Shown here: positions 20,800-63,870 of the stretch, piece by piece
Numbering within the stretch: the stretch's first letter is position 1
How the letters are laid out: the number at the start of each line of letters is the position of its first letter
Origin: Schmidtea polychroa
Lineage: Eukaryota
Assembly (NCBI GenBank): GCA_044892525.1
Contig: CM097885.1
Location: 6,450,001-6,514,000 of the forward strand
Reading direction: 5' to 3'
Length of the DNA stretch: 64,000 nt
The notes under the pieces: generated by a model
Told to the model about the DNA's origin: nothing
The model's input: only the letters and a program-made list of their open reading frames with translations
Databases searched by the model: none
Program-made: the position numbers and the translations under genes

Positions 20800-21600
20800 A
20801 AAAAATAATAATACTTGTGCATGTCTATTTCCCATTATAAAACTTATTCATCCTCTAATATTATTTGTATCAAGAGGAGCGCGTTGACGTATATTAATAA
20901 TTCGAATTCAAATCCTGAAGTATACGATTCCGAATCCCAAAACATGCTTGGTAAAGGAATGCAATTATATGGGCTTAATTCAAATCCTTCTATAAAACTC
21001 TCAAAACAATCTGCATGAATATAAACATCCAATTATGAGTATTCATCGCTATATTCTCCTAGATTTTTACATGTGAAAAATTATTGAAAAGCGCTTTCAT
21101 ACTCTTCAGGTCTTTTATCCGACATGTTTAGTATTGAATGGAATAAATCTATTGATGGTAATTCCCTTTTTAATAGATATCCCATGAATCTACAAAGTCA
21201 TATGATAAATTCATTTTCGTAAACAAGTCTTGTAGTCTTGCTAATGAATTATATACTTGTTCCAAACATTATTCATTGTATTGACAAAGTCTTTTAATGT
21301 AAAGTTCTTGGATATTCCATCTAAACTTGATACAGTGAATCAATGAATTTTAAACATCCAAAGTCAAAACATTTATACTTTTCTTTTGTTTTATCTATAA
21401 CCTTGAAAATATTCTTGGCATTCTCTGATAACTTTTTTATGAAAAAATGTCCATCATGTCCAAATAGATTATGGAATATTATTGGAATGAATTTAAGCGA
21501 TTTACTATTAATATTACAAGTTGAATGAGCAGATTCTCTATACAGAAATGATCATGATTTATAACCCTGTCAGTGATGATATGTTTCACAAATTGTCATT
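20800..21600 (-). pseudogene. Degraded Polinton pPolB fragment related to element B
   Basis: SAHSTCNI..FIPIIFHNLFGHDGHFFIK..KFIDS and DVYIHADCFE match element B pPolB motifs; multiple stops. Confidence 0.85.
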
Positions 21601-43697: not shown

Positions 43698-43820
43698 TGG
43701 TCTTAAGGATTTAATGTTATAAGGATTTAATGTTATAAGAATATCAGATTACCTAATTCATAATGATCTAGGTCGCCTGATCACCTTAAGGTTTTGAAAG
43801 TTTTAAAAATAAAAAATTTT

Positions 43821-44474
43821 ATGAAAATAGTAAAACTGCTCTGAGGGGACAGTGGTATTTTTTTTTTTTTTTTTTCACTGTCCCCTCAACAGTTTTTTTT
43901 TGATCCGGATCATTTTTTTTTTATTTATCAACCTCTTTCGTTTATCAAATCTCTTCCAATATACAAGCTGGCCAGACTCATACATCAGAATCAATCCGAT
44001 AATAGCAGCACACCTTATTATTCGCTTCTCGCTCACGAAGTCGATTTCAACGGCGTTTTAAGCGTGCTGCTCGAAAGTACAAATGAATTCGAAAGCGAAT
44101 CCGAAAGAGGTCCGAAAACAACTGAGAAATAAATGTGCACATTACCGGGATCGATCCGGGGGTGTTCGAAAGACAGGTGGCGATAATTACCGGTTCGCCA
44201 CCATCACCCGTTTCAATATTTTTTTTTTCATATTTATGTTTAAAAAATAATTAATTTATAAAAAAATAAAATAAAATAAAATAAATAAAATAAAATATAC
44301 AAGTACTTTATAAATATAAGATACCCACACTATTTTCAATATTATTTTCAAATTTTTAATATTATTTTATGTTGAAAAAAACTAACCTCAGATGTGATTT
44401 GAACCGCTATCCATTTGAACCACGGTGCCGGTCTAGCCCACTGCGCTATCTAGGATTGGATTTTTGTCATTTTT
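43821..44474 (+). repeat. Left long subterminal inverted repeat of element B
   Basis: Reverse-complement match to about 57408-58023. Confidence 0.93.
44375..44457 (-). ncRNA. tRNA-like Pol III unit (inverted-repeat copy of 57427-57508)
   Basis: Minus strand: TAGCGCAGTGG (A box), GGTTCAAATCA (B-box variant), T7 terminator. Confidence 0.6.
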
Positions 44475-44554
44475 TATACTGTCACATTATGAAAATAAAT
44501 ATAAAAACATAAAAAATCAAAACAGGATATCCAATAAAAAATTTTTTTCTAAAA

Positions 44555-47500
44555 ATGAATTGTAATATTTGTAATAAAGTTTTTAAAAATAAAACTGGAT
44601 TAATTTCTCACTTAAAATCGAAAGCTCATTTATTAAAAGAAAACAATCTTAATGATACAAATTCAAAAGTTTGTCCTAAATGTAAAGGAAGATTTCTACA
44701 TTCTGGATATAATAAACATTTTGAAAATTGTATCGGGAAAAATAGAGAAATATTTACATGTTCTCACTGTAACTTTTCAACAAAAGTAAATTTCTATTAT
44801 TTAGAACATATAAAAGAATGTAAAAATAAAAAACAAAATTCTGACGATGAGGAATGTCATTCAGAAGGAGAACCTGATCATGTTGAAAGAGAAAAATATA
44901 ACTGGGATGATTTTAATCATGTAGATGAATTTCAATTAGAAATCAATGGACCTATAACTCCTTGAGAATATATAAATAAAAATAAAAAAAATATTAAAAA
45001 TTCTTTCACTGAAGCTTTAAAAAATTATAAACCGACAAGGTATAATGTTATAAAATATAAAATTATAATCAAAGCAAAATACTGGCGAGGAGCAGAAGAA
45101 AAGACAACACCTTTAGATGTTGAAATTGGAATACCCTTTAAATATTTATTTTCAAGGATTTGATAAAACCATCAAAGAAATAATTCAAGCAGTAGAAGCA
45201 AAACAAGAAGAGGTTGAAAATGAATTAGGAGATTCAAACTTAGTATTCAACTCTTTCCAAACTTTAGTGATTGATTATTGGAGAGGATTACCACCCAATC
45301 CTAAATCTTATATTCCTACACCCTTTAAATCTAAAAATGTTATAAACATACAGAATAATGATAACAAATGTTTCGTCTGGTCAATACTTGCACATTTACA
45401 TCCTCAAGAATCAAACCCTCAAAGAGTTTCAAAATACAAACAATATGAAAATGAATTAATATTTCCCAAAGGATTCAAACACCCAATGAAACTAGAAGAC
45501 ATTCCAGAATTTGAAAAATTAAATAATCTTAAACTTAATATTTATGAACATGTTATAGGGAAAGAAATTATTCCAATTTATATTTCAGATAGTGGAACCG
45601 ATAACACTAGGGAGATATATCTTTTAATCTTGGAACAACAAAATAATCAACATTATGTTTTAATAAAAAACTTTCAAGCTTTTACATCACCAGAGAATCC
45701 AACTAGTGGAGGAGGAACATGTAAAAGATGTATTCATTATTCAACAACTAAAAACTCTATGATTAAACATACAAGATTTTGTGAAAAAGAGGATCCAGCT
45801 TTAATTAAAATGCCTAATAATCCCAAGATGTATTTTAAAAACTTTTCAAATTTACTACAAACAGTAGGAGTGCTTTATGGGGACTTTGAATCTATAAATC
45901 GTAAACAAGATTTGGTTAAACAATATTTAAAAATAATAGAAAAAATAAACTCATGGATTCCTGGAACTCCTCAGGAGAGAAGATGAAACCAGAGAGGATG
46001 AAAGCCTTTCTAAGAAAAAGGAATAAACCTAATAGTGTTAAAAAAACTAAACAATTACCATCTGCTTATAAATTATTATTTAAAAGTAATTATCCTGAAC
46101 TCATAGAATCTAGAGAATATACATTTCGAGGAATTTCAGAAACAGAAGTCTTGAATCATTTTACTAAAAGTATAAATGATCTAGAACATGAAATATTTAA
46201 AGTATTAAAAACAAAGTATCCTCAAAATATTTCTAATCAACAACAACAAGAATATGAAAACACTTCCAACTGTTGGATGTGTAAACAACCATTTGAAGAG
46301 TCTCCGAATATAAAAGTCCTCGATCATGATAATTTAAAAAAGGAAAATAATTATCGAGAAGCAGCTCATAAAAATTGCAATCTTAATTGTCATACTCCTA
46401 AATTTGTACCTGTTATATTTCATAATCTTTTTGGTTATGACATACATCTATTTATTAAACATTTAGCAGCAAATGCTAAAAACTCTTTCAAAGTTATAGG
46501 ACTTACAAAGGAAAAATATAAATCAGTTGAATATGGAAAATTAAAATTTATAGACTCGTTAAACTTTCTTCAAATGTCTCTAGATGGAATAGCTAAAACA
46601 ATGAAACCAGAAGATTTTAAAATCACTCGAGAATTCTTGGAAAAAAATAATATTCCTCTAGAAGAATATCCTACATGTTTAGCAAAAGGAATATATCCTT
46701 ATGACTATGTTGACTCGTTTGAAAGATATAATGAAACAAGTCTTCCTAGCCAAGAAGATTTCTATTCACAACTTCAAAAAAATCATATTACAAATCAAGA
46801 ATATTCTCGAGCAAATAAAATGTGGGAATTATTCAAGTGTAAAACTTTAGGAGAATATACCAACATGTATTTATCCTTGGATGTTTATATTCTAGCAGAT
46901 TGCTTTGAAGAATTTACAAAGTCTTTTGTTCTTAGACCTTACAATTATATAACAGCACCCTCTTTAGCTTGGGATACTTTATTATATACCATTTGGACTT
47001 CAAATATAGAAGAATCTGATAAAATTATAGATCTTTTAACTAACCTCGATATGTTTAATCTAATTAAAACAAACATTAGAGGAGGAGTCTCTTCAGTAAT
47101 GGGGAATAGAGAAATAAAAGCTAGAAATGCAATAACTACTAGCCGAAGACTATCTAAACACCCTGATGATCCATATATGAAAATTAACAATGAGGAATTA
47201 AAAGAAATATTAGAAACAATGAAAAATCCTATATTTATACTTTATATAGATGCAACAGCTTTATATTCAGGAATTATGACTCAATATTTACCAATGGGTG
47301 ATTTCATTGAAATAGAATCATCAAAAGAACTTATAAAAGAAATACTTTCAACACCTAAAGATTCTCCAATAGGTTACTTTGTAGAATGTGACTTATTATA
47401 TCCAGATGATATAAAATCAGGAACAAGATATTTCCCATTAGCTCCTGTAAGAAGAAAGATTGATATCAACGAACTTTCTGAATGGCAAATCTCACAAGAT

Positions 47501-48835
47501 AAACCTCCAACAATGAAACTTCTTTGTGATCAAACAGATCGAACTTATTATCTTTGTCACTATAGACTCCTCCAATTTTATCTCTCATGAGGAATGATAT
47601 TAAAAAAAGTTCATAGTGTCATAAGATTTAAACAAGCTCCATTCATGAAAGCTTTTATCGAAGAGAACATTAGATGTCGAAACATTGCAAAAAGAGAAGG
47701 TAACCTTTTTAAAGATAATAATTATAAACTTTTAAACAATTCAGTCTTTGGGAAGACAATGGAAAATGTAGACAAATATACTCATATTGAACTCCTAACA
47801 AATACTACCAAAGACATTAAGCGTTATAATCGTATGCTAGGAAAGCCTACATTTAAAAACGCACAAGTATTTTCTGAAAGTCTTACTGCAATAGAACTAA
47901 AGAATTTTGAGAAAACATACAACAAACCAATATTTATAGGGTTTTCAATTTTAGAACTTTCAAAATTACAAATGTATGAAACATATTATAACATCTTACA
48001 ACCTATATATGGTTCTAATATATCAATGCATGCAATGGATACAGATTCAATGTTTTTAACAATAAGAACTCATGATTTACAAAGAGATATAACCGAAAAT
48101 CCTATACTTTCAAATTTAATAAATTCATCTGGAGAATTATTTTTGTTTAAAGATGAAAAACCTTTTACTCCTATAGAAAATGGAATATTTATTCGTGCTA
48201 AACAATATTCATACGAAACATTTAGAAACCCTGAATTTATAACTAGATCATTTATATTTAAAACTCCAGAAACAGAAGAAACCATTACACATAGATATCC
48301 TATATTTCCTAAAGGACCAGAGGGACAAGAAGAAAAACCTGTAAAGGATAACAGATGTAAAGGAATACAGAAATCAGCTGCAAAGAATCTTTCTCATCAA
48401 GATTATATAGATACATTGAATCCAAATCATAAAGATAAAATTGATGAAATACATCAGATTAAAAGTGAAAACCATGATATTCATGTGATAGAATCCCAAA
48501 AAGTATCATTATCAAATTATGATGATAAAAGATTCATCCTAAGTGATTTAAAGACAACTCTTCCTATAGGAAATAATTTAATCCCTATAATAAAAAATCT
48601 AGAAAAGTTGAATAAGTTATATGATACAAAGATTACTGATCTTGATATTTATAATGTTGAAATTATTTATCCCGAGAGAGAAATCGAGAAGCCTTTATAT
48701 TCTCAAGTTTTTAATCCTATATGTTTAGAACTTAAATATTTTAATACTGATTCTGAATATATAAAAGGTCTAAGTGATAAAGAATTTAAAGATCATAAAT
48801 TAATGATTCATAGGTTGGCTTTCAACCATAACTGA
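44555..48835 (+). pseudogene. polB: Polinton pPolB with N-terminal C2H2 zinc fingers, split into four ORFs
   Basis: YGDFE, FHNLFGYD, YIDATALYS, KLLNNSVFGK, MDTDS. In-frame TGA at 44963 and 47588 (frame stays open afterwards) and frameshifts near 45135 and 45980. Confidence 0.92.
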
Positions 48836-48929
48836 AACCAACGATATTTAATGTCGACAATTAATTTAAGCAACTATAGCAACCTGATCTACTTTTTTAA
48901 AAATACACCCATTTTATATATTTATAATT

Positions 48930-49520
48930 TTAAGAATTCTTTAACCATTTCTCTCGTTTAATTTTTTTATTAGTTATAACATTAGCATTTTTTAATCTTA
49001 TAACCTCATTTTTAATATCTTGTATTATTTGATTTGATTTCATTATTTCATCATCAGTTAAGATTCCATCTTCCAAAGCTTTTAATTGAAATAAAAATAA
49101 TTTAGAGATTCCTAATTCTATTGATAAACAAACTTCACGATATAAACTTTTCTTTTTAGAAGTATAAGATAATGAAACTATTTCAGTTAAGAAACCATCA
49201 GCTACAGAAATACTTCCAAGTATTACAGGTGCAAGAGTAACAACTGGTAAAGTTATGGGTAAAATAACTGTTAATATTGCAGATGCAAATCCTAAAGAAT
49301 AACCTATAACTTTTAAAACTGTATTCCCTTTATTCCATCTATTTTTAATTTTTTTATAATGCTTTAATAAATCTTGTAAATGTAAGGTTTCTGATTTAAA
49401 TTCTTTTACTCTCATAATTTCAAGTTCTGTGGGAGCCGAGGCCTTGGAACCTTTGTGACCTTCGGAATAATATCCTGATGACAATTCTGGGTAAATTTTT
49501 TCTTCTCTTACTTCTTCCAT
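48930..49520 (-). CDS. Polinton membrane protein (hydrophobic hairpin between helical regions)
   Basis: Hydrophobic stretch VLKVIGYSLGFASAILTVILPITLPVVTLAPVILGSISV; in tight co-oriented gene array. Confidence 0.7.
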   Translation of the reverse strand: MEEVREEKIYPELSSGYYSEGHKGSKASAPTELEIMRVKEFKSETLHLQDLLKHYKKIKNRWNKGNTVLKVIGYSLGFASAILTVILPITLPVVTLAPVILGSISVADGFLTEIVSLSYTSKKKSLYREVCLSIELGISKLFLFQLKALEDGILTDDEIMKSNQIIQDIKNEVIRLKNANVITNKKIKREKWLKNS

Positions 49521-49528
49521 TTTAATAA

Positions 49529-50137
49529 TTAAAAAAATAAGACTTTATTCTTCTGAGCACCATCTGGCACCAATACTCGGATATCAAAAGAAACTCTTGT
49601 TGAGAGAATATCTTTATACAATTCCATCAATGCTTTACGAACTTCATCAACATCAACCTTTTTTTCATAAAATATTAAATCTATATATTGTACAAGTGTG
49701 CTTTTAAAAATAATATTCTTACTTTTAACTTTATGTAGTCCATGTGAATGAGTATTAACATACCAATCTCCGTGTGGTAAATCATAAGCAGTAATTATAA
49801 CATCACCCTTTTCAAACTTACTATTATAATCACATTTCACAAACCATTTCATTCTTTCATTATCATCATCAAATAAAAAGAAATAAGGATCAATAATCTT
49901 TACAACCATAAAAACACTCCATTCTTTACTGTTTGTTGTTATTAAAGTTGGTTCTATAAAATGTTTATATGTATGGGGTAATAATGTTTTATTCTGTTCT
50001 AATTCAGCAGCTCTTTTTCTAATACTATGTGTGGTGTTAATATGTGTTGTATGAGACTCTAAATTTGAAAGTCTTTTATTAAATGATGTAATCATCTCAT
50101 TTATTATATTATATATTGCATTAAATTTAGTATTCAT
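49529..50137 (-). CDS. Hypothetical protein (short coiled coil, IRKR motif, beta-rich domain)
   Basis: 202-aa ORF spaced 8-13 bp from neighbours. Confidence 0.65.
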   Translation of the reverse strand: MNTKFNAIYNIINEMITSFNKRLSNLESHTTHINTTHSIRKRAAELEQNKTLLPHTYKHFIEPTLITTNSKEWSVFMVVKIIDPYFFLFDDDNERMKWFVKCDYNSKFEKGDVIITAYDLPHGDWYVNTHSHGLHKVKSKNIIFKSTLVQYIDLIFYEKKVDVDEVRKALMELYKDILSTRVSFDIRVLVPDGAQKNKVLFF

Positions 50138-50150
50138 AATTTGTTTATCT

Positions 50151-50531
50151 TTAGAGTTTAATATTTAACTTTACAACTTGTTCAGTTAACAGACTTTGTA
50201 ACTTGTCAAATTTATCATTAAATCGTTGTTCGTTATTATTAAGCTTTGATTCCATTGAATCAATTTTTGTTGTTAATGAACTTTCAATTCTTGTTGTTGT
50301 TAAATCAGTATAATTTTTAACACCATCTACATATTTTTTATTAGCAGCATCACCTTCATCAGTTGGTAAAGATAAATCTTTTATCTTGTGTCCATTTAAA
50401 TTTAAATCTCCTTTCATTGAATCACCTCTTTCATTAATATATTTATTTTCTGTTAAAGTTAATATTTCTTCTGTATTAAACCCTGTTTTTATTGTTCCAC
50501 CACCTCTATTACAAGGAATATAAGAACTCAT
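50151..50531 (-). CDS. Fibre-like protein
   Basis: GDSMKGDLNLNGHKIKDLSLPTDEGDAANKKYVD resembles phage tail-fibre/trimeric adhesin neck motifs, followed by coiled coil. Confidence 0.65.
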   Translation of the reverse strand: MSSYIPCNRGGGTIKTGFNTEEILTLTENKYINERGDSMKGDLNLNGHKIKDLSLPTDEGDAANKKYVDGVKNYTDLTTTRIESSLTTKIDSMESKLNNNEQRFNDKFDKLQSLLTEQVVKLNIKL

Positions 50532-50555
50532 TTATTAATAATTTAAAATGAATCT

Positions 50556-51317
50556 TCAAACCTGTTTCAAATGTAAATACATTGAAATCTCTTCTCCATT
50601 AAAATCAATCAATTCTCCTTCTTGATTAAGAATTTTAAAATTAATATCCATTATATATTTTCTACATAAAGACAAATAATTTGGAGGATTCATTCTTTCA
50701 ACTATTTTATATCCCATAGGAACTGTGTTTGAGGGAAAGGAATATAAAATATTACTTTGTTTACCATTATTATAAGAACCTGTTATACAATCGCAATGAA
50801 TATTTATTGTGTTTGTATTTATTATTTTTATAATATTTTCTGATGTTATATTCTCAACTATAGGTGTGGTATAATGGTTTTGTGTAAATCCTAAAATTGT
50901 TCTAAAGAAACTATTATTTTGAAAACGAATTCCTATATTCTCTAAAGTCATTATACATTTTGAAGTTGGTAAATCCATTTTAATTTTAATGGCTCCATTT
51001 GTTTTTTTAGAAAGTATATTATTTAAATCTTTTATCTCATAAGCTCCAGGTTTTATTATTACATCAACATTTCCTTTTCGACTAATAATGAATTTACTAT
51101 TATCTTTAGTTATATTAAAAATAGTATTATAAGCACAAAACCATAATAGACCTAATTCATAATTTAAATCTTGATCTAATTTTATTGAATCTTGAAAGTT
51201 TATAGTAAAGTCTGATTCTTTTGAATTTATAGATAAAGTTCTTGAATATTTATCTGACATTATGTTTACCATTTTTTTAAAATTATCTTCCGGAAGGTTG
51301 CGAAGCTCCATTTTCAT
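50556..51317 (-). CDS. Minor capsid protein (penton, single jelly roll)
   Basis: SDFTINF..IKL..YELGL, PGAYEI, INIHCDCI..SNILYSF, GELIDFNGE..LHLK pattern of Polinton minor capsid. Confidence 0.82.
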   Translation of the reverse strand: MKMELRNLPEDNFKKMVNIMSDKYSRTLSINSKESDFTINFQDSIKLDQDLNYELGLLWFCAYNTIFNITKDNSKFIISRKGNVDVIIKPGAYEIKDLNNILSKKTNGAIKIKMDLPTSKCIMTLENIGIRFQNNSFFRTILGFTQNHYTTPIVENITSENIIKIINTNTINIHCDCITGSYNNGKQSNILYSFPSNTVPMGYKIVERMNPPNYLSLCRKYIMDINFKILNQEGELIDFNGEEISMYLHLKQV

Positions 51318-51739
51318 AATAGAGATTTTAAATCATTATAAATTTCTTGGATTAAGGAAGTGAAACCTTCTCCTTTGGATTTATTCAATCTATACAAAAT
51401 ATATAAACTTATAATACCACATATTTTAGTATTATTAGGTTTAACTTGTAAAGAATTAAAAGTGTAGTCCGAGAGATAGTCTTCAACTTCTTTAGTGGGT
51501 TTAATCCCAAAAGAATCAAAGTATATAGATTTATTATATATACAAACCCAATGAGATCCTTTTTCATTTGAATTTTGATAATTGATTGTTATATTATTCT
51601 CTTTCAGACTCGACAATTCATCATTCATTAATATTTTTATTTTTAAATTTAAATAATTTGCATAATCTTTTAAATCAAAATTTGTTTTTGCATTTATTCC
51701 AAATGTTTTTAAAAAATCTAATATTGAAGGACAAGTCAT
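51314..51739 (-). CDS. Adenain-like cysteine protease
   Basis: GSHWVC, YFDSFG, ICG catalytic His/Asp/Cys; the usual oxyanion Gln position reads Lys (QVKP). Confidence 0.88.
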   Translation of the reverse strand: MTCPSILDFLKTFGINAKTNFDLKDYANYLNLKIKILMNDELSSLKENNITINYQNSNEKGSHWVCIYNKSIYFDSFGIKPTKEVEDYLSDYTFNSLQVKPNNTKICGIISLYILYRLNKSKGEGFTSLIQEIYNDLKSLL

Positions 51740-51747
51740 TTTGTATT

Positions 51748-52602
51748 TTATAACTTCGTATATTTATTAAATTTATCTTTTGAAATTATTCCTTGTTTTA
51801 ACAAATCTTTAGAAATCTTTAAAATATCAGAATCTAAATTATTATGTCCTGCTTTCCTTGCAGATAATAGTTTTCTTAATTCAATAAAAAGATTGATTGG
51901 GTTTGGTTCAACCAATCCATCACCCTCTGTAACAACATAACCCTTTTCATTTTTATTTAAATAATTCTTTAAATCTTGAATATATTTTGCTTTAGAACTA
52001 GCTCTTATTAATCTTATTAAATTTAAATATTTTTTAATTTCTTCAACATCATCTGAAGAATATCCACAAAGTAATCTATAAAAATCATCTGTAAATTCAA
52101 GGTCTAAATATTCATTATTATAAACATTTTGTGAATGAATACGTGATTTATTTTCTGAATTTGAATATAAAGTAAAGTTTTGTTTATTAATTGTTATTAT
52201 TTGATATCCTTCAGTATTAGTATTAAATGTGGGTCTAATTGAAGGAGGTAAATCATCTCTAATTTTAGGATCAACTTTAAGAGGTTTTGTTTTTAAAAAC
52301 ATTTCTTCTTCTTCCACATTAGAAATTCTTCTACGTTTTCTTTGATTTCTTTCAGTGAGCTCTGATGTTTCTTTATCTTTAAACCTTTCAGTGGATTCTT
52401 CCTTCCACTCCAATTCTTTTATTTTTTGTTTTTTATCTTCTAATTCTAATCCTTTTATAGCTTTAATTGTTGGCCCCTGTTGTTGTTGGATTACCTCATT
52501 TAATATTATAGATTCAGCATGTTGGGTTGTATCTTTTTTATTATATTTATCTTGTTCTGATTGTAATTTTTTTAAAAGTGCTAATCTTTCTTCATATACC
52601 AT
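51748..52602 (-). CDS. Conserved Polinton hypothetical (probable virion core) protein
   Basis: C-terminal GDGL..NPINLFIELRKLLSARKAGHNN..LLKQGII motif that I recognise from Polinton accessory ORFs. Confidence 0.7.
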   Translation of the reverse strand: MVYEERLALLKKLQSEQDKYNKKDTTQHAESIILNEVIQQQQGPTIKAIKGLELEDKKQKIKELEWKEESTERFKDKETSELTERNQRKRRRISNVEEEEMFLKTKPLKVDPKIRDDLPPSIRPTFNTNTEGYQIITINKQNFTLYSNSENKSRIHSQNVYNNEYLDLEFTDDFYRLLCGYSSDDVEEIKKYLNLIRLIRASSKAKYIQDLKNYLNKNEKGYVVTEGDGLVEPNPINLFIELRKLLSARKAGHNNLDSDILKISKDLLKQGIISKDKFNKYTKL

Positions 52603-52624
52603 TTTAATGGTATCAAAAATGGTA

Positions 52625-53164
52625 TCATTTTGGTTCGAAGGGCTTCAAGTATAAACCTTTACCATTTTTGGTTTTACAAAGGCATCCATTCTTTAAAGAT
52701 TTACATATATTTTTTAAATCATCTTTATCTTTTGAAGATAAAGATTCAGATGTAGAAATTTGATTTTTTAAAAAATCATTTAAACCTCTACATTTATAAG
52801 GATCAAGATAAAGGCTCTTTCCCTTGGAGAGACTCCCCTCATATGGATTAAGATAGAGACCTTTTCCCCTCTTCTTCATTGAATCGATTTCAGTTTGTAG
52901 TTTTTCTTTTTCTAAGTCTGTCTTTTGAGATTCTTTAGCTTTTTGAACTGTAGTTGCAATTCCTCCAGCTATTCCAGCAGCACCTGATAGTCCGGCAATG
53001 ATTGCAGGTATTAAAGCAGCTAATGGAAGAATGCCACCTTCTTTAATCTTCGCTCTAACTTGTTCTTTTACATGTTTTCCAATAAAATATTTTTTACCAT
53101 CAATTACTACTGATTTATTTTTATTTGAATTTATTAATTCTTGCAGAGATTCTTCAGTTGTCAT
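52625..53164 (-). CDS. Adenovirus protein X-like membrane-active core protein
   Basis: EGGILPLAALIPAIIAGLSGAAGIAGG amphipathic segment and repeated GKGLYL-P motifs (candidate protease sites). Confidence 0.75.
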   Translation of the reverse strand: MTTEESLQELINSNKNKSVVIDGKKYFIGKHVKEQVRAKIKEGGILPLAALIPAIIAGLSGAAGIAGGIATTVQKAKESQKTDLEKEKLQTEIDSMKKRGKGLYLNPYEGSLSKGKSLYLDPYKCRGLNDFLKNQISTSESLSSKDKDDLKNICKSLKNGCLCKTKNGKGLYLKPFEPK

Positions 53165-53179
53165 TTTTAAATAAATAAA

Positions 53180-53968
53180 ATGGATATTTGGAAACCAATT
53201 TTAAATAGACATAAATCTAAATTTAATAATAAAGTATTTCCTGATAATTTTAGATTATTAATTGTTGGTTCTTCTGGATGTGGAAAGAATGTACTTGTTT
53301 TGAAAATGTTGCTTGAAGATGGTTTTTTAGATTATAATAGTTTAATCTTTTACTCTACAACTATAAATCAACCAGAATTACAACTTTTGAAATGTGGATT
53401 TGAAAATAAATTAACTAAAAAAGCAATAATTGATATTTTTAAAAATCAACATAGATGTCCTGAAGAAGTTTTTCATCCTTGTGATATGGTTGATTGGTAT
53501 AAGGAAAAGATTTTAGAATCAGATATTAGTAATAAAAATGATTATATTTGTGAAGAGGGGCAGGAAATTCAAGTTTTATTCTCTAATAAATCTGAAGATG
53601 TTTTACATTGTGATTTACTTCCTAAAGATAAAAAGAATCTAGTTATATTTGATGATGTTGTTAATATGAAAAATCAAGAGATTCAAAAGAGTTACTTTAC
53701 AAGAGGAAGACATAATAATTGTAATGTTATTTATATATCTCAAACTTATTATGCTTTAGATAAAAATTCAATAAGAAATAATTCTAATTGTTTTATATTT
53801 TTTAAATTAGATCGCCGTGATAAGAATATGATTTATAATGATTTATTTTCAAATGTTGAACCTGATAAGAATATGTTTGATATGTTTGTTGATAATCATT
53901 GGAAAGAAAAATATAATTATATTTATTTGGATAGAGAAGAAGCTGAAATATGGAAAAGTTTGTTTTAA
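53180..53968 (+). CDS. A32/FtsK-like packaging ATPase
   Basis: Walker A GSSGCGKN (Thr/Ser replaced by Asn), Walker B LVIFDD, RGRHNN, YISQ, IRNN. Confidence 0.92.
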   Translation: MDIWKPILNRHKSKFNNKVFPDNFRLLIVGSSGCGKNVLVLKMLLEDGFLDYNSLIFYSTTINQPELQLLKCGFENKLTKKAIIDIFKNQHRCPEEVFHPCDMVDWYKEKILESDISNKNDYICEEGQEIQVLFSNKSEDVLHCDLLPKDKKNLVIFDDVVNMKNQEIQKSYFTRGRHNNCNVIYISQTYYALDKNSIRNNSNCFIFFKLDRRDKNMIYNDLFSNVEPDKNMFDMFVDNHWKEKYNYIYLDREEAEIWKSLF

Positions 53969-53983
53969 CTTGTTTTTTATAGT

Positions 53984-55339
53984 TCAGAAATCTGTTTTCT
54001 GTAACTCATTATTATAAAATCTACCTAATATTTTTTCATTATTTAAATCAAAGATGCTATATGTTATTGGAGTTGTATAATGTATTTTATTTATAATAAA
54101 AATTTCATTTGTCCATTTTGCTGTGAATCCTTTTTCAAATTTATATTTATATTTAAATATTCTTACTCGGTCACCAATTTTAAACTTTGGTTTTTCAATA
54201 ACATAATTTTCAACATTTACCACTTTAACGGTTTCAGGATTCAAGGAAGCATTTAAAGGTGTTGATTTTATAGAACTATGTACATCATTATTATATTCAT
54301 TTACAATCTTTTGTAACAATTCATTGTTCCATTTTTGTTTTCCAATAGCAGTAAAATATTTCCACATTTTATTTTTTAATGTTCTATTTAATCTTTCAAC
54401 CACAACTGCTTTTCCTTCGTTTTCTGTTGAATATAATTTAATATCATTTTCATTTAAAAACTTTGTAAAAACTTTGTTATAAAATTCTGTTCCTTTATCA
54501 CACCATAAATATTTTGGAATTCTTTGATGTTCTTCAAATATATTTTCAAATGCTTCTGTAATGGAATATCCTGTTTTATTTTCTAAACACCTTGCAAAGG
54601 CAAATCTTGTATATAAATCTATTACAGTTAAAATTATTTTATATTTTTCAGGGTCTGATGATTTGGTTGGCATAAAGACTAAATCTGCAGACCATGTTTG
54701 ATCTTTTTCATGTACTTGAACTTTTAAATATTTTTTATTTTTTCTAAATTCATGGTGTAATTCGTTGGCATATTTTATTTGTGATTCTGTTGGGGTTAAT
54801 AAACTAGTCTTGGATATATTCTCGAGGGATCTTTCAGCATCTGCTTGTTCAATAATCTTTTTATTAGCAACATTTTTTGCCATCCTCGGTAAACTAGCAC
54901 CTATGAAAATCATACCTTTCATTGCTAATTTAACTAGAGCTCTTTGAATCTTTTCTTGGGTTGATGGATTTTGGATACTATTTAAATCATGTATTAAATT
55001 AATATCTGCAACATGTCTATCTCTAAGATCTTCTGAATTGTAAGCAATATCATGTTTTAAAGCTGCTTGGTCGATTCTATTTATTGGTTCTTCTCCTTGT
55101 TTGGGATTATTATTTTCATCTAATCTAATATCTAATCTTGTTCCTGGTCCGGTATAGTTGTGTTTAAATAAATGTCTTTCACCTGGATATTTTTCTGTAG
55201 TAAAAGGTTTTAATATTGAAGATGTCACTTTTGAAGATTGTAGGTCGGCTCCTGTATGTTTTTTAGTTTTTAAATGACTTGCTTTATGATGTCTTGTAAC
55301 TTGACAATTACAACTTTCACATCTCCAATAGAGAGACAT
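53984..55339 (-). CDS. Zn finger + parvovirus-type phospholipase A2 domain + rve (DDE) integrase fusion
   Basis: CESC..H..HLKTKKH; NYTGPGT..IDQAALKHDIAY; WSADL, WCDKGTEFYN, VERLNRTLK; KFKIGDRVRI; ends without a chromodomain. Confidence 0.92.
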   Translation of the reverse strand: MSLYWRCESCNCQVTRHHKASHLKTKKHTGADLQSSKVTSSILKPFTTEKYPGERHLFKHNYTGPGTRLDIRLDENNNPKQGEEPINRIDQAALKHDIAYNSEDLRDRHVADINLIHDLNSIQNPSTQEKIQRALVKLAMKGMIFIGASLPRMAKNVANKKIIEQADAERSLENISKTSLLTPTESQIKYANELHHEFRKNKKYLKVQVHEKDQTWSADLVFMPTKSSDPEKYKIILTVIDLYTRFAFARCLENKTGYSITEAFENIFEEHQRIPKYLWCDKGTEFYNKVFTKFLNENDIKLYSTENEGKAVVVERLNRTLKNKMWKYFTAIGKQKWNNELLQKIVNEYNNDVHSSIKSTPLNASLNPETVKVVNVENYVIEKPKFKIGDRVRIFKYKYKFEKGFTAKWTNEIFIINKIHYTTPITYSIFDLNNEKILGRFYNNELQKTDF

Positions 55340-55356
55340 TTTAAAATGTTAAAATA

Positions 55357-56643
55357 TTAAGAATCTCCCCTAACATTTTCGATTATTGAAATCTTTCCAC
55401 CATATAATTTCATTTCTATTTTCTTTTCTTCTAATATTAATGTATATACTTTAGCTTTGAAATTAGAATCCTTTGTTACATGAAGTGTAACATCAACATT
55501 ATTTATGGCTAATCTATCATCTTGATCTGATACATTTATACAAAATATAGAATATAAATTTTTGAAATCTTCTAAACTTAATTGTGGTTCAACTTTGAAA
55601 TCATAACATGTTTCAATATAATTTAGATATGGGAATATGTTTTCATTATTTTCAATATTAAATTCCATTCTATTTATTGGATAATAAGAACTATTTAATT
55701 GAATTTGAATTGTTTTTAAATTATCATTTCCAATCTTTTGAATAAATAGATTGTTATTCTTTTGGAAAGATGAATCTACTTCTTTGAATCCAATCAAGAT
55801 ATATCTTGGTCGGTATGCTAAATTTGCTACCTTTATGGAATATGTTGAACCCTCTGTCATACTAAATTCACTACAGATTCTATTTAAATAATTTACATTT
55901 ATAGACTTGTTGGAATTTAATCTTTCAAGGAGTTTAATCTCGGAATGTGGGTTTAATGTCCATTCAGGTATATGTAATTCAAGTGTTGATAATTTTAATT
56001 TTGCTTTTGTATCTGCAGCTCCATAGAACAATCTTTTATCACCTTCTACTCTATTACAGATGAATTCTATAAAAACATTATGAAGTATACGATTATAGTT
56101 TTGAAGGAATCCAAACAAGTGTTTTAATTCAAAATAACCTTCAAATTTTTTAGATTTATAAAGTTCAGCTCTTTTATAGTAACCATAATTTATATCTAAA
56201 CCATCTTTATCTAAATCTCCTTTATTAACATCAGGAATCCAGCCTGTTAATTCACCATATTCATTTTTATAATCACAACCAGTCAAAATAAAATTTAACA
56301 TTGTAGAATATACTCCCGGATGTAAAACAGTTTCAATTTCTGATGATCCTAGTTTTATTCTCATGTTGGTAAATAAATTTGGAAAGAAATTATTTTCTAG
56401 GGTTATATCTTTGTTTGCTTCAATTTCTAATTCAATTTTATAATATAATTTAGCATTACAAATATCTATTGGGTTTGATGTTTGAAGAGATTGAAAAACT
56501 ATATCACCCCTACGATTTAAGTTTGCAATAGATCCTGAAGCTGGCGAGATTTTTAAAATATCATTTTTTTTTATTTCATGCATAAATTCTTGATTACAAT
56601 CAAGATTTAATTTATTTTTTTCTTGAATTTTTATATTATTCAT
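55357..56643 (-). CDS. Major capsid protein (double jelly roll)
   Basis: 428 aa; NFFPNLF..LGSSEIE, LKHLFGF, RPRYILIGF, IQLNSSYYP, YSIFCINVS pattern of Polinton MCP. Confidence 0.85.
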   Translation of the reverse strand: MNNIKIQEKNKLNLDCNQEFMHEIKKNDILKISPASGSIANLNRRGDIVFQSLQTSNPIDICNAKLYYKIELEIEANKDITLENNFFPNLFTNMRIKLGSSEIETVLHPGVYSTMLNFILTGCDYKNEYGELTGWIPDVNKGDLDKDGLDINYGYYKRAELYKSKKFEGYFELKHLFGFLQNYNRILHNVFIEFICNRVEGDKRLFYGAADTKAKLKLSTLELHIPEWTLNPHSEIKLLERLNSNKSINVNYLNRICSEFSMTEGSTYSIKVANLAYRPRYILIGFKEVDSSFQKNNNLFIQKIGNDNLKTIQIQLNSSYYPINRMEFNIENNENIFPYLNYIETCYDFKVEPQLSLEDFKNLYSIFCINVSDQDDRLAINNVDVTLHVTKDSNFKAKVYTLILEEKKIEMKLYGGKISIIENVRGDS

Positions 56644-56699
56644 TTTTATATATTAAAATTTACACACACAAAATAGGATTAATTAAATATATTATGTAA

Positions 56700-56781
56700 G
56701 CCATTATAGCGAAGTGGGAATAGGCTTCAATTTTATCACCGGGAGTACCGGGTTCAATTTTCGATTTTGGTCAATTTTTTT
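56700..56781 (+). ncRNA. tRNA-like Pol III unit 1 (more degenerate)
   Basis: TAGCGAAGTGG A box, GGTTCAATT B-box variant at tRNA spacing, T7 run; internal T4 runs may cause early termination. Confidence 0.5.
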
Positions 56782-56942
56782 CGATATTTTTTTTCAACGG
56801 AATCTGATTCAGCGTACTGATTTTAGTATATATTTATATTTTCAGATGGATCTGAGTGGTAGTTGTCGAGAAAATGAATAATTAATTATTAATTTCATCA
56901 ATAAATAGTCACACATTAACAACTTATTTTATATTGAGTATA

Positions 56943-57023
56943 GCTCTAATAGCTTAGTGGTAATAGCACTCGACTGCATTGCCAATACCAATGGGTTCAA
57001 ATCCCATTTCGGTCATTTTTTTT
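56943..57023 (+). ncRNA. tRNA-like Pol III unit 2 (tRNA-Cys-like 5' half)
   Basis: TAGCTTAGTGGTAATAGC D arm/A box, GACTGCA anticodon-like segment, perfect T arm ATGGG-TTCAAAT-CCCAT, T8 terminator; anticodon and acceptor stems imperfect. Confidence 0.7.
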
Positions 57024-57180
57024 CAAATTTTTTTTTAACGAAATATTGATCAGCATACTCGATTTAGTACTTGTACAAATTTTTAAGGTGATTGGTCAAC
57101 GGCAACTCTTGGAAATTTAAGATCAAAAACGTTTTAACTACCAAAAATTAATATATCCAATAAAAAAAATATTTATAAAA

Positions 57181-57432
57181 ATGGATGAGTTAAAAGAAAG
57201 AATGAGAAATGAATTGAATGAAGTTAAACATAAGAGAATGAAAAGAAGAGAAGAAGAACCATTAGAATACATCAAAGAGTTGATGGTAGATAATGAAAAG
57301 TATCGACATTTTTATATGAAGGCTGTAGATGTTGCTGATATAAGATTGAAGAAAATGAAACAATTACAGGAAAGAGTTAAAGAACTTGAATCGATTATTT
57401 ATAGTCTAAAAATGAGAAAAATCCAAACCTAG
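57181..57432 (+). CDS. Small coiled-coil protein (83 aa)
   Basis: AAAAATG start context; shares upstream ATATCCAATAAAAAA motif with the polB gene. Confidence 0.6.
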   Translation: MDELKERMRNELNEVKHKRMKRREEEPLEYIKELMVDNEKYRHFYMKAVDVADIRLKKMKQLQERVKELESIIYSLKMRKIQT

Positions 57433-58023
57433 ATAGCGCAGTGGGCTAGACTGGCACAGTGGTTCAAATGGATGGTGGTTCAAATCCTAACTGTGGTTAG
57501 TTTTTTTTCAACATAAAATAATATTAAAAATTTGAAAATAATATTGAAAATAGTGTGGGTATCTTAGATTTATAAAGTAGTTGTATATTTTATTTATTTT
57601 TATTTTATTTTATTTATTTTATTTTTTAAACATAAATATGAAAAAAAAATTATTGAAACGGGTGATGGTGGCGAACCGGTAATTATCGCCACCTGTCTTT
57701 CGAACACCCCCGGATCGATTCCATAATGTGCACATTTATTTCTCAGTTGTTTTCGGACCTCTTTCGAATTCACTTTCGAATTCATTTGTACTTTCGAGCA
57801 GCACGCTTAAAACGCCGATGAAATCGTATTCGAGCGAGAAGCGAATAATAAGGTGTGCTGCTATTATCGGATTGATTCTGATGTATGAGTCTGGCCAGCT
57901 TGTATATTAGAAGAGATTTGATAAACGAAAGAGGTTGAAATGATCCGGATCAAAAAAACTGTTGAGGGGACAGTGAAAAAAAAAATACCACTGTCCCCTC
58001 AGAGCAGTTTTACTATTTTTCAT
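57408..58023 (-). repeat. Right long subterminal inverted repeat of element B
   Basis: Reverse complement of about 43821-44474. Confidence 0.93.
57427..57508 (+). ncRNA. tRNA-like Pol III unit 3
   Basis: TAGCGCAGTGG A box, two GGTTCAAAT motifs (second GGTTCAAATCC), T8 terminator. Confidence 0.65.
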
Positions 58024-58096
58024 TTATTTTTTAATTTATATAATTTAAAATCAATAATCTGATAAAGATCAACTCCGGAGTTTGATTGCGATCAAA

Positions 58097-58955: not shown

Positions 58956-60403
58956 AAGAATTTCATGTTGATTGATTAAAAATTTTAAGTTATATTGGTG
59001 ATTTTAATTGAATTTCTTGATAATTTGCTAAATTTTTTAAATTTTAAATAAAATTTAATTTTTAATGACTGTTAGGTTAATAATCAAGTAATAGGTTTAA
59101 CTTTAGATGACTTTGTAATGCATTAGACTAAATAATTTTTTTCAATAATTTTCTAAGAATATTTACACATATATATTTTGATCCTTATGGAATTAAACCA
59201 ACAAAAGAAGTCGAGGAATATTTAGGAGAAGAATACACTTGGAATACTCTACAAGTTCAACCTGACAACACTAAAATATTTGGAGTTTTGTGTTTATATG
59301 TTTTGTATAAATTAAATCAAGTTATTCCTCAAATTGAAGATGAATTTATAAATATAATTCAAGAAATCTATAATGATTTAGAAACTTGTCATTAAAAGGT
59401 TTTCCAAAACTTAATAGAATAAGTTTTTAAAATTTACAACTAGATCTAATCCGTCCTGGGATTCAAAAGAAGAAGTATCTAATTTAATTTCTTTTAAATT
59501 ATAAAAAGTAATCAATACTTACATTGTAAATTTTCATTTCGATTTATTGACACATTTATTCGTATTACCTAAATTATTAATTAATTAAATCAATAAATTA
59601 AAAATTTTGTTTACTTTTTCTTTTCAAATTTCCTTTAATCTTCGATTTTAAATTGTCTTCATTAATATTATCTAAATTAATTATTAAATTAATTAATAAA
59701 TAAATTAAAATTTACCAAATTCCTGAATTTTTTCTCAGACATTCATAACGTTTTCTATTAAAGAATTCATTTTTAAAGGTTAACGATTTGTTAAATGTGA
59801 CTAATGATAGATTATTGTTTATAGATTATCATTGTTTATAGATTATTATTGTTTATAGGAACAAATTCTAACCAATCAAGAGCAAGGAATGGTAGGAAAA
59901 AAAGTAAATATATTGCGTTGCGGTATTTTAAAATTAAAATTTATTTTAAAAACACATTTTGACGCTAAAGTCGACTTATGTAACAAAGACATAATAAACT
60001 TATTATTTCCTACAAATATTTCACCCACCAAATACCTAACTAGAGATGATATATATTGATTGTTCATAAAAGCAAACTTAATCACAAATTTCAGTATATC
60101 TTACAATAATTTTCAAGTAAATTTGAAGTCCTTGGTAAAGTTGACTGGTTTCTTAGCAAATGTTTTTTTAAAGTTCGTCAATGTGTAAATTGAGATATTC
60201 TTAGAAAATTATTGAAAAAAATTATTTAGTCAAATGCATTACAAAGTCATCTAAAATTAAACCTATTACTTGATTATTAACCTAACAGTCATTAAAAATT
60301 AATTTTTATTTAAAATTTAAAAAATTTAGCAAATTATCAAGAAATTCAATTAAAATCATCATTAAAACTTTAAATTTTTAATCAATCAAAATGAAATTCT
60401 TAG
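58955..60403. repeat. AT-rich inverted repeat pair (about 58955-59170 and 60181-60403) enclosing about 1 kb
   Basis: Direct reverse-complement comparison (GATGACTTTGTAATGCATT / AATGCATTACAAAGTCATC and flanks). Confidence 0.85.
59171..59395 (+). pseudogene. Fragment of a second element-B-type protease
   Basis: IYFDPYGIKPTKEVEEYL..LQVQPDNTKIFG..IQEIYNDL aligns with 51314-51739; His region missing, Cys replaced by Phe. Confidence 0.88.
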
Positions 60404-63059: not shown

Positions 63060-63870
63060 TAAATCAAGTTATTTCAACGTTTAGAAAATTTTGAATCAAA
63101 ACTGTTTGAAAGAAATTCAAACAATTCAGGGATCGATCCCAGGTGTGTTGGAAAGAGTTGTGGCGATGTCTCCAGTTTCGCCACCACACTCGGTTCAAAA
63201 AATTATTTTTTCATATTTATTTTGTAAGTTAATTAAAAGAAATACTAATACACACAAAATACACAAAATATTTATTTTATAATAGTAAAACAAATTATAA
63301 AATAGTTGTTATATTAAAACAGAAACATTGAAATTTGTTTATAAAAATAGTTTTACTTGGAATTTGAACCATGTTTATTATTGATGTTTGTTAAATAGAT
63401 TCCCACTGTGCTATCTAAGCTGTTGTTTTTTACACTTTAAATTTTTATTAATTTTAAAAATATTTTTTTTGAAAAGTAGTAGGGAAATTTACCAAGAAAG
63501 TCATCTCTGTTGATGAGGTCGTAGACCGAGCTAAACAATATTCTCTCAAATGTTTTTAAGGCGAAGAAAATAAAAATAAAGGAATAAAAAATGTGTAAAA
63601 CATAAAATAAAAAATAACTCATCAAAATTATTTAGATTGCTTCAAACCATTTTCTGAAAAAAGTATGGATATTATTTATAATTTAAATTCTAAAAATCTT
63701 GATATGTTATTACAAAAATCATAAAAATCTTCTTTGGAAAACTATGATAACAAAAAATGTATTTTGTCTGATTTAACAACAACATTTCCTCATTGAAATG
63801 ATTTGGTTGAAATTATACAAGAAAAGAATGATTTGGAAATGTATAATGATTATTATCTCACTTGTTGTAG
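63060..63870 (+). mobile_element. Decayed relative of element B (inverted-repeat homolog, Pol III unit, pPolB C-terminal remnant)
   Basis: 63128-63220 resembles 44146-44240; 63343-63421 carries minus-strand A and B boxes; 63670-63830 translates to SLENYDNKKCILSDLTTT versus SLSNYDDKRFILSDLKTT. Confidence 0.78.
63343..63421 (-). ncRNA. Diverged tRNA-like Pol III unit
   Basis: Minus strand TAGCACAGTGG ... GGTTCAAATTCC ... T5; spacer unrelated to the element B copies. Confidence 0.55.

Follow-up and report, generated by a model that had tools for sequence, protein, structure and literature searches.

Adenoviruses and many other eukaryotic DNA viruses are believed to descend from Polintons, and we know of no account of how their integrated copies escape or manage host silencing. 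Among viral small RNAs, the VA RNAs of adenoviruses are about 160 nt long and tightly base-paired, and in the TMERs of MHV68 pre-miRNA hairpins lie between a cloverleaf-like tRNA part and the terminator. As described in the available excerpts of PMC8223928 and PMC4337559, TMERs are non-aminoacylatable tRNA-like units with internal A and B boxes, of which a genome has several, grouped near one of its ends. tRNA genes are also known in Polinton-like viruses, virophages and MELD viruses; in the accessible parts of PMC12220804 and PMC8502044 these genes are canonical tRNAs that ARAGORN or Rfam recognises, and the discussion treats them as codon supplements. In other organisms, tDNAs and TFIIIC (ETC) sites act as heterochromatin barriers (excerpts of PMC2040200, PMC3395662 and PMC6950938), and planarian Polintons have been reported as prime piRNA/PIWI targets (excerpt of PMC8532177). 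Our literature search found neither an account of animal Polintons with tRNA-like or Pol III units (tables S11 and S12 of PMC12220804 could list tRNA-like hits in elements of animal type) nor a mobile element carrying its own tDNA/ETC barrier, and the terms tRNA, noncoding and small RNA are absent from the nematode Polinton paper PMC10748475. The remark in the preliminary description that no account of such units in Polintons was known has to be qualified in view of the tRNA genes of Polinton-like viruses reported in the accessible parts of PMC12220804 and PMC8502044.

The window, that is, the whole stretch of 64,000 nucleotides that was analysed, contains an element with the attributes that define Polintons/Mavericks, namely a protein-primed PolB, an rve integrase, a double-jelly-roll capsid, a packaging ATPase and terminal inverted repeats (Table 1). 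Pfam matches were obtained for five of its 15 ORFs and cover pPolB (PF03175), an A32-type ATPase (PF04665), an rve integrase (PF00665) with a PLA2 domain (PF08398) and the capsid (PF21738), and the inverted repeats are about 650-700 bp long. This set bears out the adintovirus-like Polinton identity initially proposed. The capsid gene is transcribed away from units 1 and 2. This Polinton is a very abundant transposon in this animal genome.

Table 1. Coordinates of the Polinton, its genes and the tRNA-derived units in the window.
Feature	Position	Strand	Basis or details
Polinton/Maverick element, 14.3 kb	43780..58063	.	Inverted repeats, ORFs and Pfam
Polinton gene order: zf-C2H2, pPolB, virion module, A32 ATPase, rve+PLA2 integrase, DJR capsid			ORFs and Pfam
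Left terminal inverted repeat	43780..44474	.	Inverted-repeat arms
Unit 4, left-repeat twin of unit 3	44375..44457	-	A box start 44448; B boxes 44421 and 44405; then T7
Major capsid protein gene (double jelly roll)	55357..56643	-	PF21738, E = 1.7e-26
Accessory cassette, 483 bp, holding units 1 and 2	56661..57143	+	L079 aligned to the window; junction counts
Unit 1	56700..56794	+	A box 56707-56717; B box 56751-56761, degenerate at its 3' end; T7 56775-56781; T8 56787-56794
Unit 2, remodelled tRNA-Cys(GCA)	56943..57036	+	A box 56950-56960; B box 56994-57004; T8 57016-57023; T9 57028-57036
ORF83, small ORF	57181..57432	+	No Pfam family; stop codon overlaps the 5' end of unit 3
Right terminal inverted repeat	57408..58063	.	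Inverted-repeat arms; inner edge ~57408
Unit 3, right-repeat inner edge	57427..57508	+	A box 57434-57444; B box duplicated, 57461-57469 and 57477-57487; T8 57501-57508
Homologous unit, fragment of old decayed Polinton-derived family B	63345..63424	-	A box start 63413; B box 63370; then T5

The Polinton carries three different tRNA-derived units, one of which is duplicated in the inverted repeats, giving four copies. All four, including the one in the left repeat, lie where they had been reported. The preliminary description placed three of them between the capsid gene and the right repeat; this is correct for units 1 and 2, whereas unit 3 lies inside the repeat. A type-2 Pol III unit is recognised by an A box close to +8, a B box some 30-60 nt further on and an oligo-T terminator soon afterwards, and at the sequence level the units exhibit this layout. 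The spacing from A box to B box is 43-44 nt in all units, and the T7-T8 runs begin 1-3 nt past the acceptor-like end. The reported combination of an A box, a B box at tRNA-like spacing and a T7-T8 run is borne out. The pattern TAGCNNAGTGG-N20-45-GGTTCAA has five matches in the window against 0.00 expected (100 shuffles). The fifth match (63364-63413, minus strand), which the preliminary description did not contain, falls in the family B unit. Host tRNA-Lys and tRNA-Arg genes have a similar layout, with T7 or T6 runs beginning 4-6 nt downstream. Units 1 and 2 also have about 60 nt in common downstream of their T-runs, as previously noted. Judged from their sequence, the units are very probably tRNA-derived Pol III-type modules borne by the Polinton, and the presence of promoter and terminator suggests that the Polinton may recruit the small-RNA polymerase of the cell.

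With regard to tRNA ancestry, unit 2 gives the only Rfam match over the gathering score (tRNA, RF00005, 32.4 bits vs 29). In a by-eye count against the host tRNA-Cys(GCA), it agrees in 24 of 29 columns of the 5' half, in 2 of 15 in the middle and in 11 of 11 in the B box. The GCA anticodon triplet is in register and the T arm is perfect, its stem being re-paired with a sequence unlike that of the host gene. The cmscan alignment shows non-standard pairs in the acceptor, D and anticodon stems and marks the anticodon stem as unpaired, so the earlier reading of unit 2 as a tRNA-Cys(GCA)-like 5' half devoid of a paired anticodon stem is correct. Among the units, only unit 2 passes the Rfam threshold, ARAGORN identifies no tRNA in the whole window, and units 1, 3 and 4 have no match to the Rfam tRNA model at E <= 10. 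A tRNA is defined here by a score over the family threshold together with a cloverleaf whose acceptor and anticodon stems are paired; none of the units qualifies, unit 2 having the score but also non-standard pairs in its stems. It has been proposed that Polinton-like viruses and phages use working genes to provide themselves with a scarce tRNA; such a role would fit the score and the in-register triplet of unit 2, but is hardly credible here given the ARAGORN result, the non-standard stem pairs of unit 2 and the lack of a match of the other units to the tRNA model at E <= 10. Moreover, the host already possesses a tandem array of tRNA-Cys genes with hundreds of members (982 pattern matches). 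The units also depart from the tRNA genes described in the available portions of the papers on Polinton-like viruses, virophages and MELD viruses, with which they have in common a Pol III-type, tRNA-related gene within a small dsDNA element that belongs to the Polinton/adintovirus realm: the units keep only promoter and terminator, and one of them is located in the inverted repeats and is thus present at both Polinton ends.

Capture of the cassette from the host tRNA-Cys array was also considered. It was rejected because the array spacer is unlike the cassette spacer, only tRNA-internal blocks being matched. When the genome was searched with the Rfam tRNA model, only arrays of tRNA-Lys and tRNA-Arg genes emerged.

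The RNAs predicted from the units are about 75-85 nt long. Their folding z-scores are -0.14 (unit 1), -2.53 (unit 2), 0.02 (unit 3), 0.37 (unit 4) and 0.00 (family B unit), so that for four of the five, shuffled sequences fold equally well, and unit 2 is weakly significant, 7 of 200 shuffles being as good. None of the hairpins downstream of the units is significant (z = 0.52 and -0.77), and no Rfam viral RNA family matches the units at E <= 10. The units resemble the genes of adenovirus VA RNA I/II in their internal A and B boxes, in their oligo-T terminator and in belonging to a DNA element related to adenoviruses by capsid and polymerase, but the predicted RNAs do not show the extensive pairing and length of about 160 nt of a VA RNA, and no Rfam VA match was obtained at E <= 10. 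Likewise, they recall the TMERs, as described in the available excerpts, by being several tRNA-like units with internal A and B boxes clustered near one end of a viral genome, but the T-run directly follows the unit, whereas a TMER combines the tRNA-like part and pre-miRNA stem-loops in one Pol III unit. Because no significant downstream hairpins were found and the folds, except weakly that of unit 2, are like those of shuffled sequences, the VA-RNA-like or MHV68-like RNA system envisaged in the preliminary description is not supported. More generally, the Polinton could encode Pol III small RNAs acting as RNAs, such as decoys or sponges, small-RNA precursors, or ligands of La or of innate sensors. 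The complete promoter and terminator layout, the weakly significant fold and intact T arm of unit 2, and the conserved sequence common to units 1 and 2 are in line with such a role, which is nevertheless unlikely, as the z-scores of the other units are close to zero and no RNA structure is conserved among units or families. RNA structure is not what is conserved.

Units 1 and 2 lie in a cassette that is flanked by 5-bp direct repeats (AAAAT) and interrupts the divergent intergenic region of the capsid gene and ORF83, which otherwise measures ~51 nt. The sister subfamily A', which is about 90% identical (84 junctions) and has an open capsid frame, lacks the cassette; the latter is accessory and dispensable. 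Junction counts, obtained with 31-mers at no more than one mismatch, gave 1,295 cassette-bearing against 84 cassette-less copies. The cassette start occurs 1,310 times in the genome and is accompanied by the Polinton flank in 100 of 100 cases among the matches listed. Similarly, the A-box/B-box/T6 pattern, searched genome-wide, corresponds to unit 1, 2 or 3/4 types in 100 of 100 cases among the matches listed. The region of units 1 and 2 is at least 99% identical in 40 of 40 scored genomic copies, in agreement with the earlier view of the units as belonging to the Polinton lineage, and seven of seven sister loci align from the capsid gene through unit 3. Among sister copies, the cassette diverges by 0-1.3% against 4.3% for the capsid gene, but because these copies were chosen by cassette identity, the per-segment differences are biased and were set aside.

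These counts also bear on whether host tRNA-derived SINE copies were inserted by chance into the Polinton. The tRNA-like head is a SINE attribute, as are tRNA descent and the keeping of A and B boxes while the cloverleaf decays, which are also found in tRNA pseudogenes, and the cassette is an insertion relative to A' with a direct repeat at its flanks. However, the units have an immediate terminator, no SINE body or tail and no independent dispersal, and the independent copies with varied flanks that characterise SINEs were not found among the cassette starts listed. The tRNA-like head is preceded by 39 nt of cassette sequence, and four T7-T9 terminators lie inside the cassette, so that full-length transcription by Pol III, as needed for retroposition, would be impossible. 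In DNA-run contigs, for which depth is a rough guide, units 1 and 2 are about as deep as the capsid gene. As all listed cassette starts have an identical Polinton flank, and as the numbers of cassette-bearing junctions and of starts are nearly the same, the possibility, raised in the preliminary description, of a dispersed host SINE absent from sister Polintons does not hold, and chance SINE insertion is very improbable. The units are neither working tRNAs nor free SINEs.

Outside this genome, the capsid protein alone and the capsid alignment gave no match in viral contigs, and the repeat-unit pattern has 0 matches in viral contigs and 0 in metagenome contigs. Six metagenome contigs encode capsids that are 45-52% identical, and no tRNA-like unit was detected in these partial contigs with Rfam (E <= 10), ARAGORN or the A/B regular expression. 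Three of them that include upstream sequence (L074, L075 and L076; capsids 45-52% identical) show no B box and another gene order, which indicates that the units are probably lineage-specific, the contigs being partial. Closer capsids are known (P0001-P0004, 56-96% identity), of which P0002-P0004 are 56-75% identical.

The unit borne by the repeats is present in the dominant subfamily, in A' and in family B, where it adjoins a stretch about 76% identical to repeat positions 57585-57722. From this distribution, the repeat-borne unit is older than the cassette with units 1 and 2. An intact unit is present in both of the A' copies that were chosen by their junction within the first 4.5 Mb. In one alignment of three related sequences (the two repeat copies and A'), the end columns of which contain gaps, 2 of 30 columns are variable in the A box, canonical B box and T-run against 24 of 61 in the rest (Fisher p = 0.0011). 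With family B added as a fourth sequence, the counts are 6 of 30 and 48 of 61 (p = 1.6e-7). Genome variants selected by the pattern were left out of this judgement owing to selection bias. Between subfamilies and families, only the A box, the B box and the T-run remain alike. Within family B, decay is even: the A box has fared no better than the sequence around it, and the pattern is still matched by only 4 of 20 copies. As the Polinton family is young (best copies 99% identical), identity within it is uninformative on selection.

The units may also be neutral relics, that is, fragments of tRNA genes or pseudogenes that were captured by recombination or aberrant repair and became abundant through recent amplification of their carrier. 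The failure of the units to qualify as tRNAs, their mostly random folds, the even decay in family B, the subfamily that does without the cassette, the partial metagenomic relatives devoid of units and copies too young for selection to show are all compatible with this explanation, which is possible but is not the one that we favour. Against it speaks an uneven decay, in which the tRNA-specific stems were lost while the A and B boxes, the distance between them and a strong terminator next to them were kept in three different units and across families. In addition, the T stem of unit 2 has been re-paired, and T runs of at least six, which occur only about twice per kb per strand, are too rare to have fallen by chance right after three separate units.

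Based on these observations, the best explanation appears to be that the units are selected TFIIIC/Pol III-binding modules inherited in the Polinton lineage, to which we give about an even chance; whether selection maintains them is, taken separately, just as finely balanced. That they are bound or transcribed in vivo is somewhat more probable. In this selected-module explanation, selection would retain the repeat-borne unit solely on account of its promoter boxes and terminator. If so, each integrated copy would bind TFIIIC, and probably also Pol III, in outward orientation at its two ends, and in the dominant subfamily further binding would take place between the divergent capsid and ORF83 genes. 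The products would be short, oligo-U-ended RNAs of about 75-85 nt, largely unstructured. The selected effect would lie at the level of DNA or chromatin, as a TFIIIC/Pol III-bound boundary or open-chromatin site countering provirus silencing; if the units are selected, such a function is somewhat more likely than one at the RNA level. The boxes common to units 1, 2 and 3 could also reflect separate tRNA captures, as all tRNAs have such boxes. The selected-module explanation has further to accommodate the dispensable cassette, the degenerate B box of unit 1, the even decay of family B and the restriction to one lineage.

The conservation pattern mildly favours the TFIIIC barrier that the preliminary description offered as one option. 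In the tDNA/ETC barriers, as presented in the available excerpts, the A and B boxes matter rather than the RNA, and the sites flank a domain; the candidate sites here occupy both element ends and the region between divergent genes. Those barriers are host loci, whereas the present units belong to a mobile element. A barrier is defined by TFIIIC binding and a block to the spread of heterochromatin; of what this demands, the units show the sequence part, intact A and B boxes. A more daring and rather unlikely scenario would be that tRNA-gene remnants were turned into the Polinton's own TFIIIC/Pol III-bound boundaries, outward in each repeat and later as a two-unit cassette between the capsid gene and ORF83, shielding the copies from small-RNA-guided heterochromatin, and that gain of the cassette helped its subfamily to about 15 times more copies than the cassette-less sister (1,295 vs 84 junctions). 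If TFIIIC/Pol III binding occurs, this would be a mobile element with its own Pol III-type boundary or small-RNA genes, a counterpart to the VA, EBER and TMER genes found in large DNA viruses, but built from promoter signals alone. The roughly 1,300 cassette-bearing and 84 cassette-less copies form a natural contrast within one genome, which makes the boundary idea directly testable.

No sequencing run recorded as RNA was found to contain the stretch. Contigs assembled from two sequencing runs, the RNA nature of which is a guess and which carry no weight for or against expression, have little depth over units 1 and 2, and some of them span unit 3 and its T-run.

The window contains a complete Polinton/Maverick element, in which Pfam named 5 of the 15 ORFs and left the other ten without a family. 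All four tRNA-derived units claimed in the preliminary description were confirmed in the window sequence, with unit 3, which had been placed between the capsid gene and the right repeat, found within that repeat, and unit 4 being its left-repeat twin. The two B boxes of unit 3 are a 16-nt duplication. For the combined A-box/B-box pattern, the window has five matches where 100 shuffles predict 0.00, and for the stricter B box GGTTCRANNCC it has three where 0.33 are expected. Within the units, the B box follows the A box at a spacing of 43-44 nt, the spacing seen in tRNA genes. Their terminators look like those of host tRNA genes: host tRNA-Lys and tRNA-Arg genes have terminal T7 or T6 runs that begin 4-6 nt past the gene. 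Runs of at least six T are infrequent in the window, at only ~2 per kb on each strand. A 34-nt motif (starting ATATCCAATAAAAAA), with two copies that are 85% identical, abuts the ATG of the zinc-finger ORF and that of ORF83, a small ORF, and is probably a common promoter or leader.

Features of the window and fold z-scores of the units
Feature	Position	Strand	Details	Fold z-score
Polinton/Maverick, complete	~43780-58063		terminal inverted repeats and Pfam-named ORFs	
Left terminal inverted repeat	43780-44474		repeat length ~650-700 bp	
Right terminal inverted repeat	57408-58063		repeat length ~650-700 bp	
C2H2 zinc-finger protein			Pfam-named ORF	
Protein-primed PolB (pPolB)	45117-48835		Pfam-named ORF; three consecutive ORF pieces	
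A32-type packaging ATPase			Pfam-named ORF	
rve integrase with PLA2-like domain			Pfam-named ORF	
Double-jelly-roll capsid protein	55357-56643	minus	Pfam-named ORF	
Cassette	56661-57143		483 bp, holds units 1 and 2	
ORF83	57181-57432	plus		
34-nt motif	44527-44560; 57153-57186			
Unit 1	56700-56794	plus	A box 56707, B box 56751, T7 then T8	-0.14
Unit 2	56943-57036	plus	A box 56950, B box 56994, T8 then T9	-2.53
Unit 3	57427-57508	plus	A box 57434, B boxes 57461 and 57477, T8	0.02
Unit 4	44375-44457	minus	A box 44448, B boxes 44421 and 44405, T7	0.37
Family B fragment with fifth unit	63345-63424	minus	adjoins stretch 76% identical to repeat 57585-57722	0.00
Hairpin, right repeat	57667-57697		~150 nt outside unit 3	
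Hairpin, family B	63175-63205	minus		
Second open pPolB ORF	35378-39286	plus	1,302 aa	
Fragments of other Polinton families	20919-21542; 59168-59386; 63563-63862	minus; plus; plus	polymerase and 51314-51739-type ORF	

The units belong to the Polinton element. The region of units 1 and 2 gave 1,096 first-look candidates in the 781 Mb genome, and each of the 40 scored matches shows 99% identity or more across 390-391 nt. A search of the same genome with the capsid protein of a relative (P0002) gave 3,322 candidates, 96 of the 97 scored being without a stop codon, and all seven sister loci compared can be aligned over the span from capsid gene to unit 3. The raw counts of the A-box/B-box/T6 pattern are inflated through overlapping matches; the 100 genome matches listed, which all come from the initial 4.5 Mb of contig 1, are without exception of the unit 1, unit 2 or unit 3/4 types. 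The start of the cassette occurs 1,310 times in the genome and its junction 31-mer 1,295 times, with the same 15-nt Polinton flank at 100 of 100 cassette starts among the matches listed. The cassette begins 39 nt upstream of the tRNA-like head, and four T7-T9 runs lie within it. The constant flank, the agreement of junctions with starts and this build rule out a freely dispersed SINE.

With regard to the origin of the cassette, the sister subfamily A' (L079), which is ~90% identical to the element, lacks exactly this segment. AAAAT stands at both boundaries of the 483 bp missing from A', where ~51 nt separate the start codons of the capsid gene and ORF83. As the region upstream of the capsid gene is also short in metagenomic relatives (106-124 nt), we infer that the cassette was inserted into a compact divergent promoter region. 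Junctions without the cassette number 84, against 1,295 with it; given these counts and its absence from A', the cassette is accessory. Its presence in the most successful subfamily is a correlation only. At least one element copy has three units spaced 243 bp. Contigs from DNA runs include low-depth deletion variants joining 56686-57091, 56701-56910, 57017-57501 and 56692-57510, with ends at or near units, a pattern expected of inter-unit recombination. Another low-depth variant joins 57135 to 57383 and has lost most of ORF83.

The repeat-borne unit is older than the cassette, since it is common to A' and to family B, an old and decayed Polinton-derived family. The family B search gave 790 candidates, whose non-identical copies are 78-88% alike; decay is even, and the pattern still fits 4 of 20 fetched copies. 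Many of the copies share an unusual arrangement, in which an opposite-strand polymerase C-terminal fragment (6 of the 20) lies just upstream of the unit and the hairpin stretch. Beyond these, 4 of the 20 have an N-terminal piece of an integrase at a similar distance, and 1 of the 20 has a capsid fragment instead. This layout suggests a rearranged non-autonomous derivative rather than random flanks. The hairpin GGTGGCGA...TCGCCACC of the right repeat is conserved in family B. Rfam found no SRP match in the window at E <= 10.

The units are of tRNA descent without being tRNAs. ARAGORN found no tRNA in the window, and unit 2 was the sole Rfam match above the gathering score (tRNA, 32.4 bits against 29), with non-standard pairs in the acceptor, D and anticodon stems according to cmscan; units 1, 3 and 4 did not match the tRNA model at E <= 10. 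The resemblance of unit 2 to tRNA-Cys(GCA), noted in the preliminary description, is right. By eye, identity with the host gene is 24 of 29 columns from the A box to the GCA triplet, 2 of 15 in the stretch that follows, and complete over the B box (11 of 11). The T stem pairs perfectly with a sequence unlike that of the host gene, and the spacer of the tRNA-Cys array bears no relation to the sequence that surrounds the units. Unit 2 is thus a heavily remodelled descendant of tRNA-Cys rather than a recent copy of the array, in which the host genes are repeated every 281 bp (982 pattern matches). Host tRNA genes lie in long tandem arrays (C1 at ~269.25 Mb, C4 at ~76.66 Mb, C140, C333 and C474 of the source genome, G000), with periods of 281 bp for tRNA-Cys(GCA), 424 bp for tRNA-Lys(UUU) and 278 bp for tRNA-Arg(UCG). 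None of the five units has a predicted cloverleaf, and the predicted folds of four are no better than those of shuffled sequence. Downstream of units 1 and 2, no hairpin is significant (z = 0.52 and -0.77).

Across units 1, 2 and 3, the T-run, a short word (GGTYA) and the promoter boxes with their spacing have persisted, while the features that would specify a tRNA, or any conserved RNA fold, are lost. An alignment of the A' copy with both repeat copies, a small sample of related sequences with gaps at the alignment ends, gives the same picture: of the 30 columns in the A box, the B box at canonical spacing and the T-run, 2 vary, against 24 of the other 61 (Fisher p = 0.0011). Adding the family B copy raises these counts to 6 of the 30 and 48 of the 61 (p = 1.6e-7). 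Selection seems to act on Pol III/TFIIIC signals rather than on RNA shape, which favours reading the units as functional TFIIIC/Pol III-binding modules; we consider the chances of this reading about even. The main rival, that the units are relics hitch-hiking within a young family, appears less likely. On this reading, the provirus would have an outward-facing TFIIIC/Pol III-binding module at each end, and copies of the dominant subfamily would have a further two in the space separating the divergently oriented capsid and ORF83 genes; short RNAs ending in oligo-U would be the predicted products. A chromatin-level role, for instance in forming a boundary or keeping a site open, seems somewhat more likely than an RNA-level role. 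In other organisms, tDNAs and TFIIIC sites are established barriers (PMC2040200, PMC3395662, PMC6950938).

Viral tRNA-like Pol III genes are present in MHV68, and A/B-box genes in adenovirus. Our literature search found no description of such units in animal Polintons, and six partial metagenome contigs of relatives contain none. Canonical tRNA genes occur in Polinton-like viruses and virophages, as stated in passages of PMC12220804 (558 tRNAs, 8,300 genomes scanned), and are drawn in MELD-virus maps in Figure 6 of PMC8502044. The units differ from the cases cited in retaining the promoter and terminator alone, in that one of them lies within the terminal repeats, and in residing in a host genome of animal type with thousands of copies. 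The second pPolB ORF of the window is ~27-29% identical to the element polymerase, and no A/B-box pair was found near it or near the fragments of other Polinton families in the window. In a related Polinton on a metagenome contig (L074), whose capsid is 50% identical to that of the element, a hairpin between the zinc-finger and protease genes (5436-5515, minus strand) scores 48.6 bits against the mir-754 precursor family (E = 3e-7), which is short of the gathering score (84).

In the outer right repeat, mirrored in the left, contig depth in the runs X1 and X2, guessed to be RNA, rises from 0-530 to 2,000-23,500 at 57650-57941. Several of these contigs end at 57939-57941 in long A runs that are absent from the window DNA there. 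The rise could reflect A-tailed DNA copies, or an abundant polyadenylated transcript that runs out of the repeat towards the flank.
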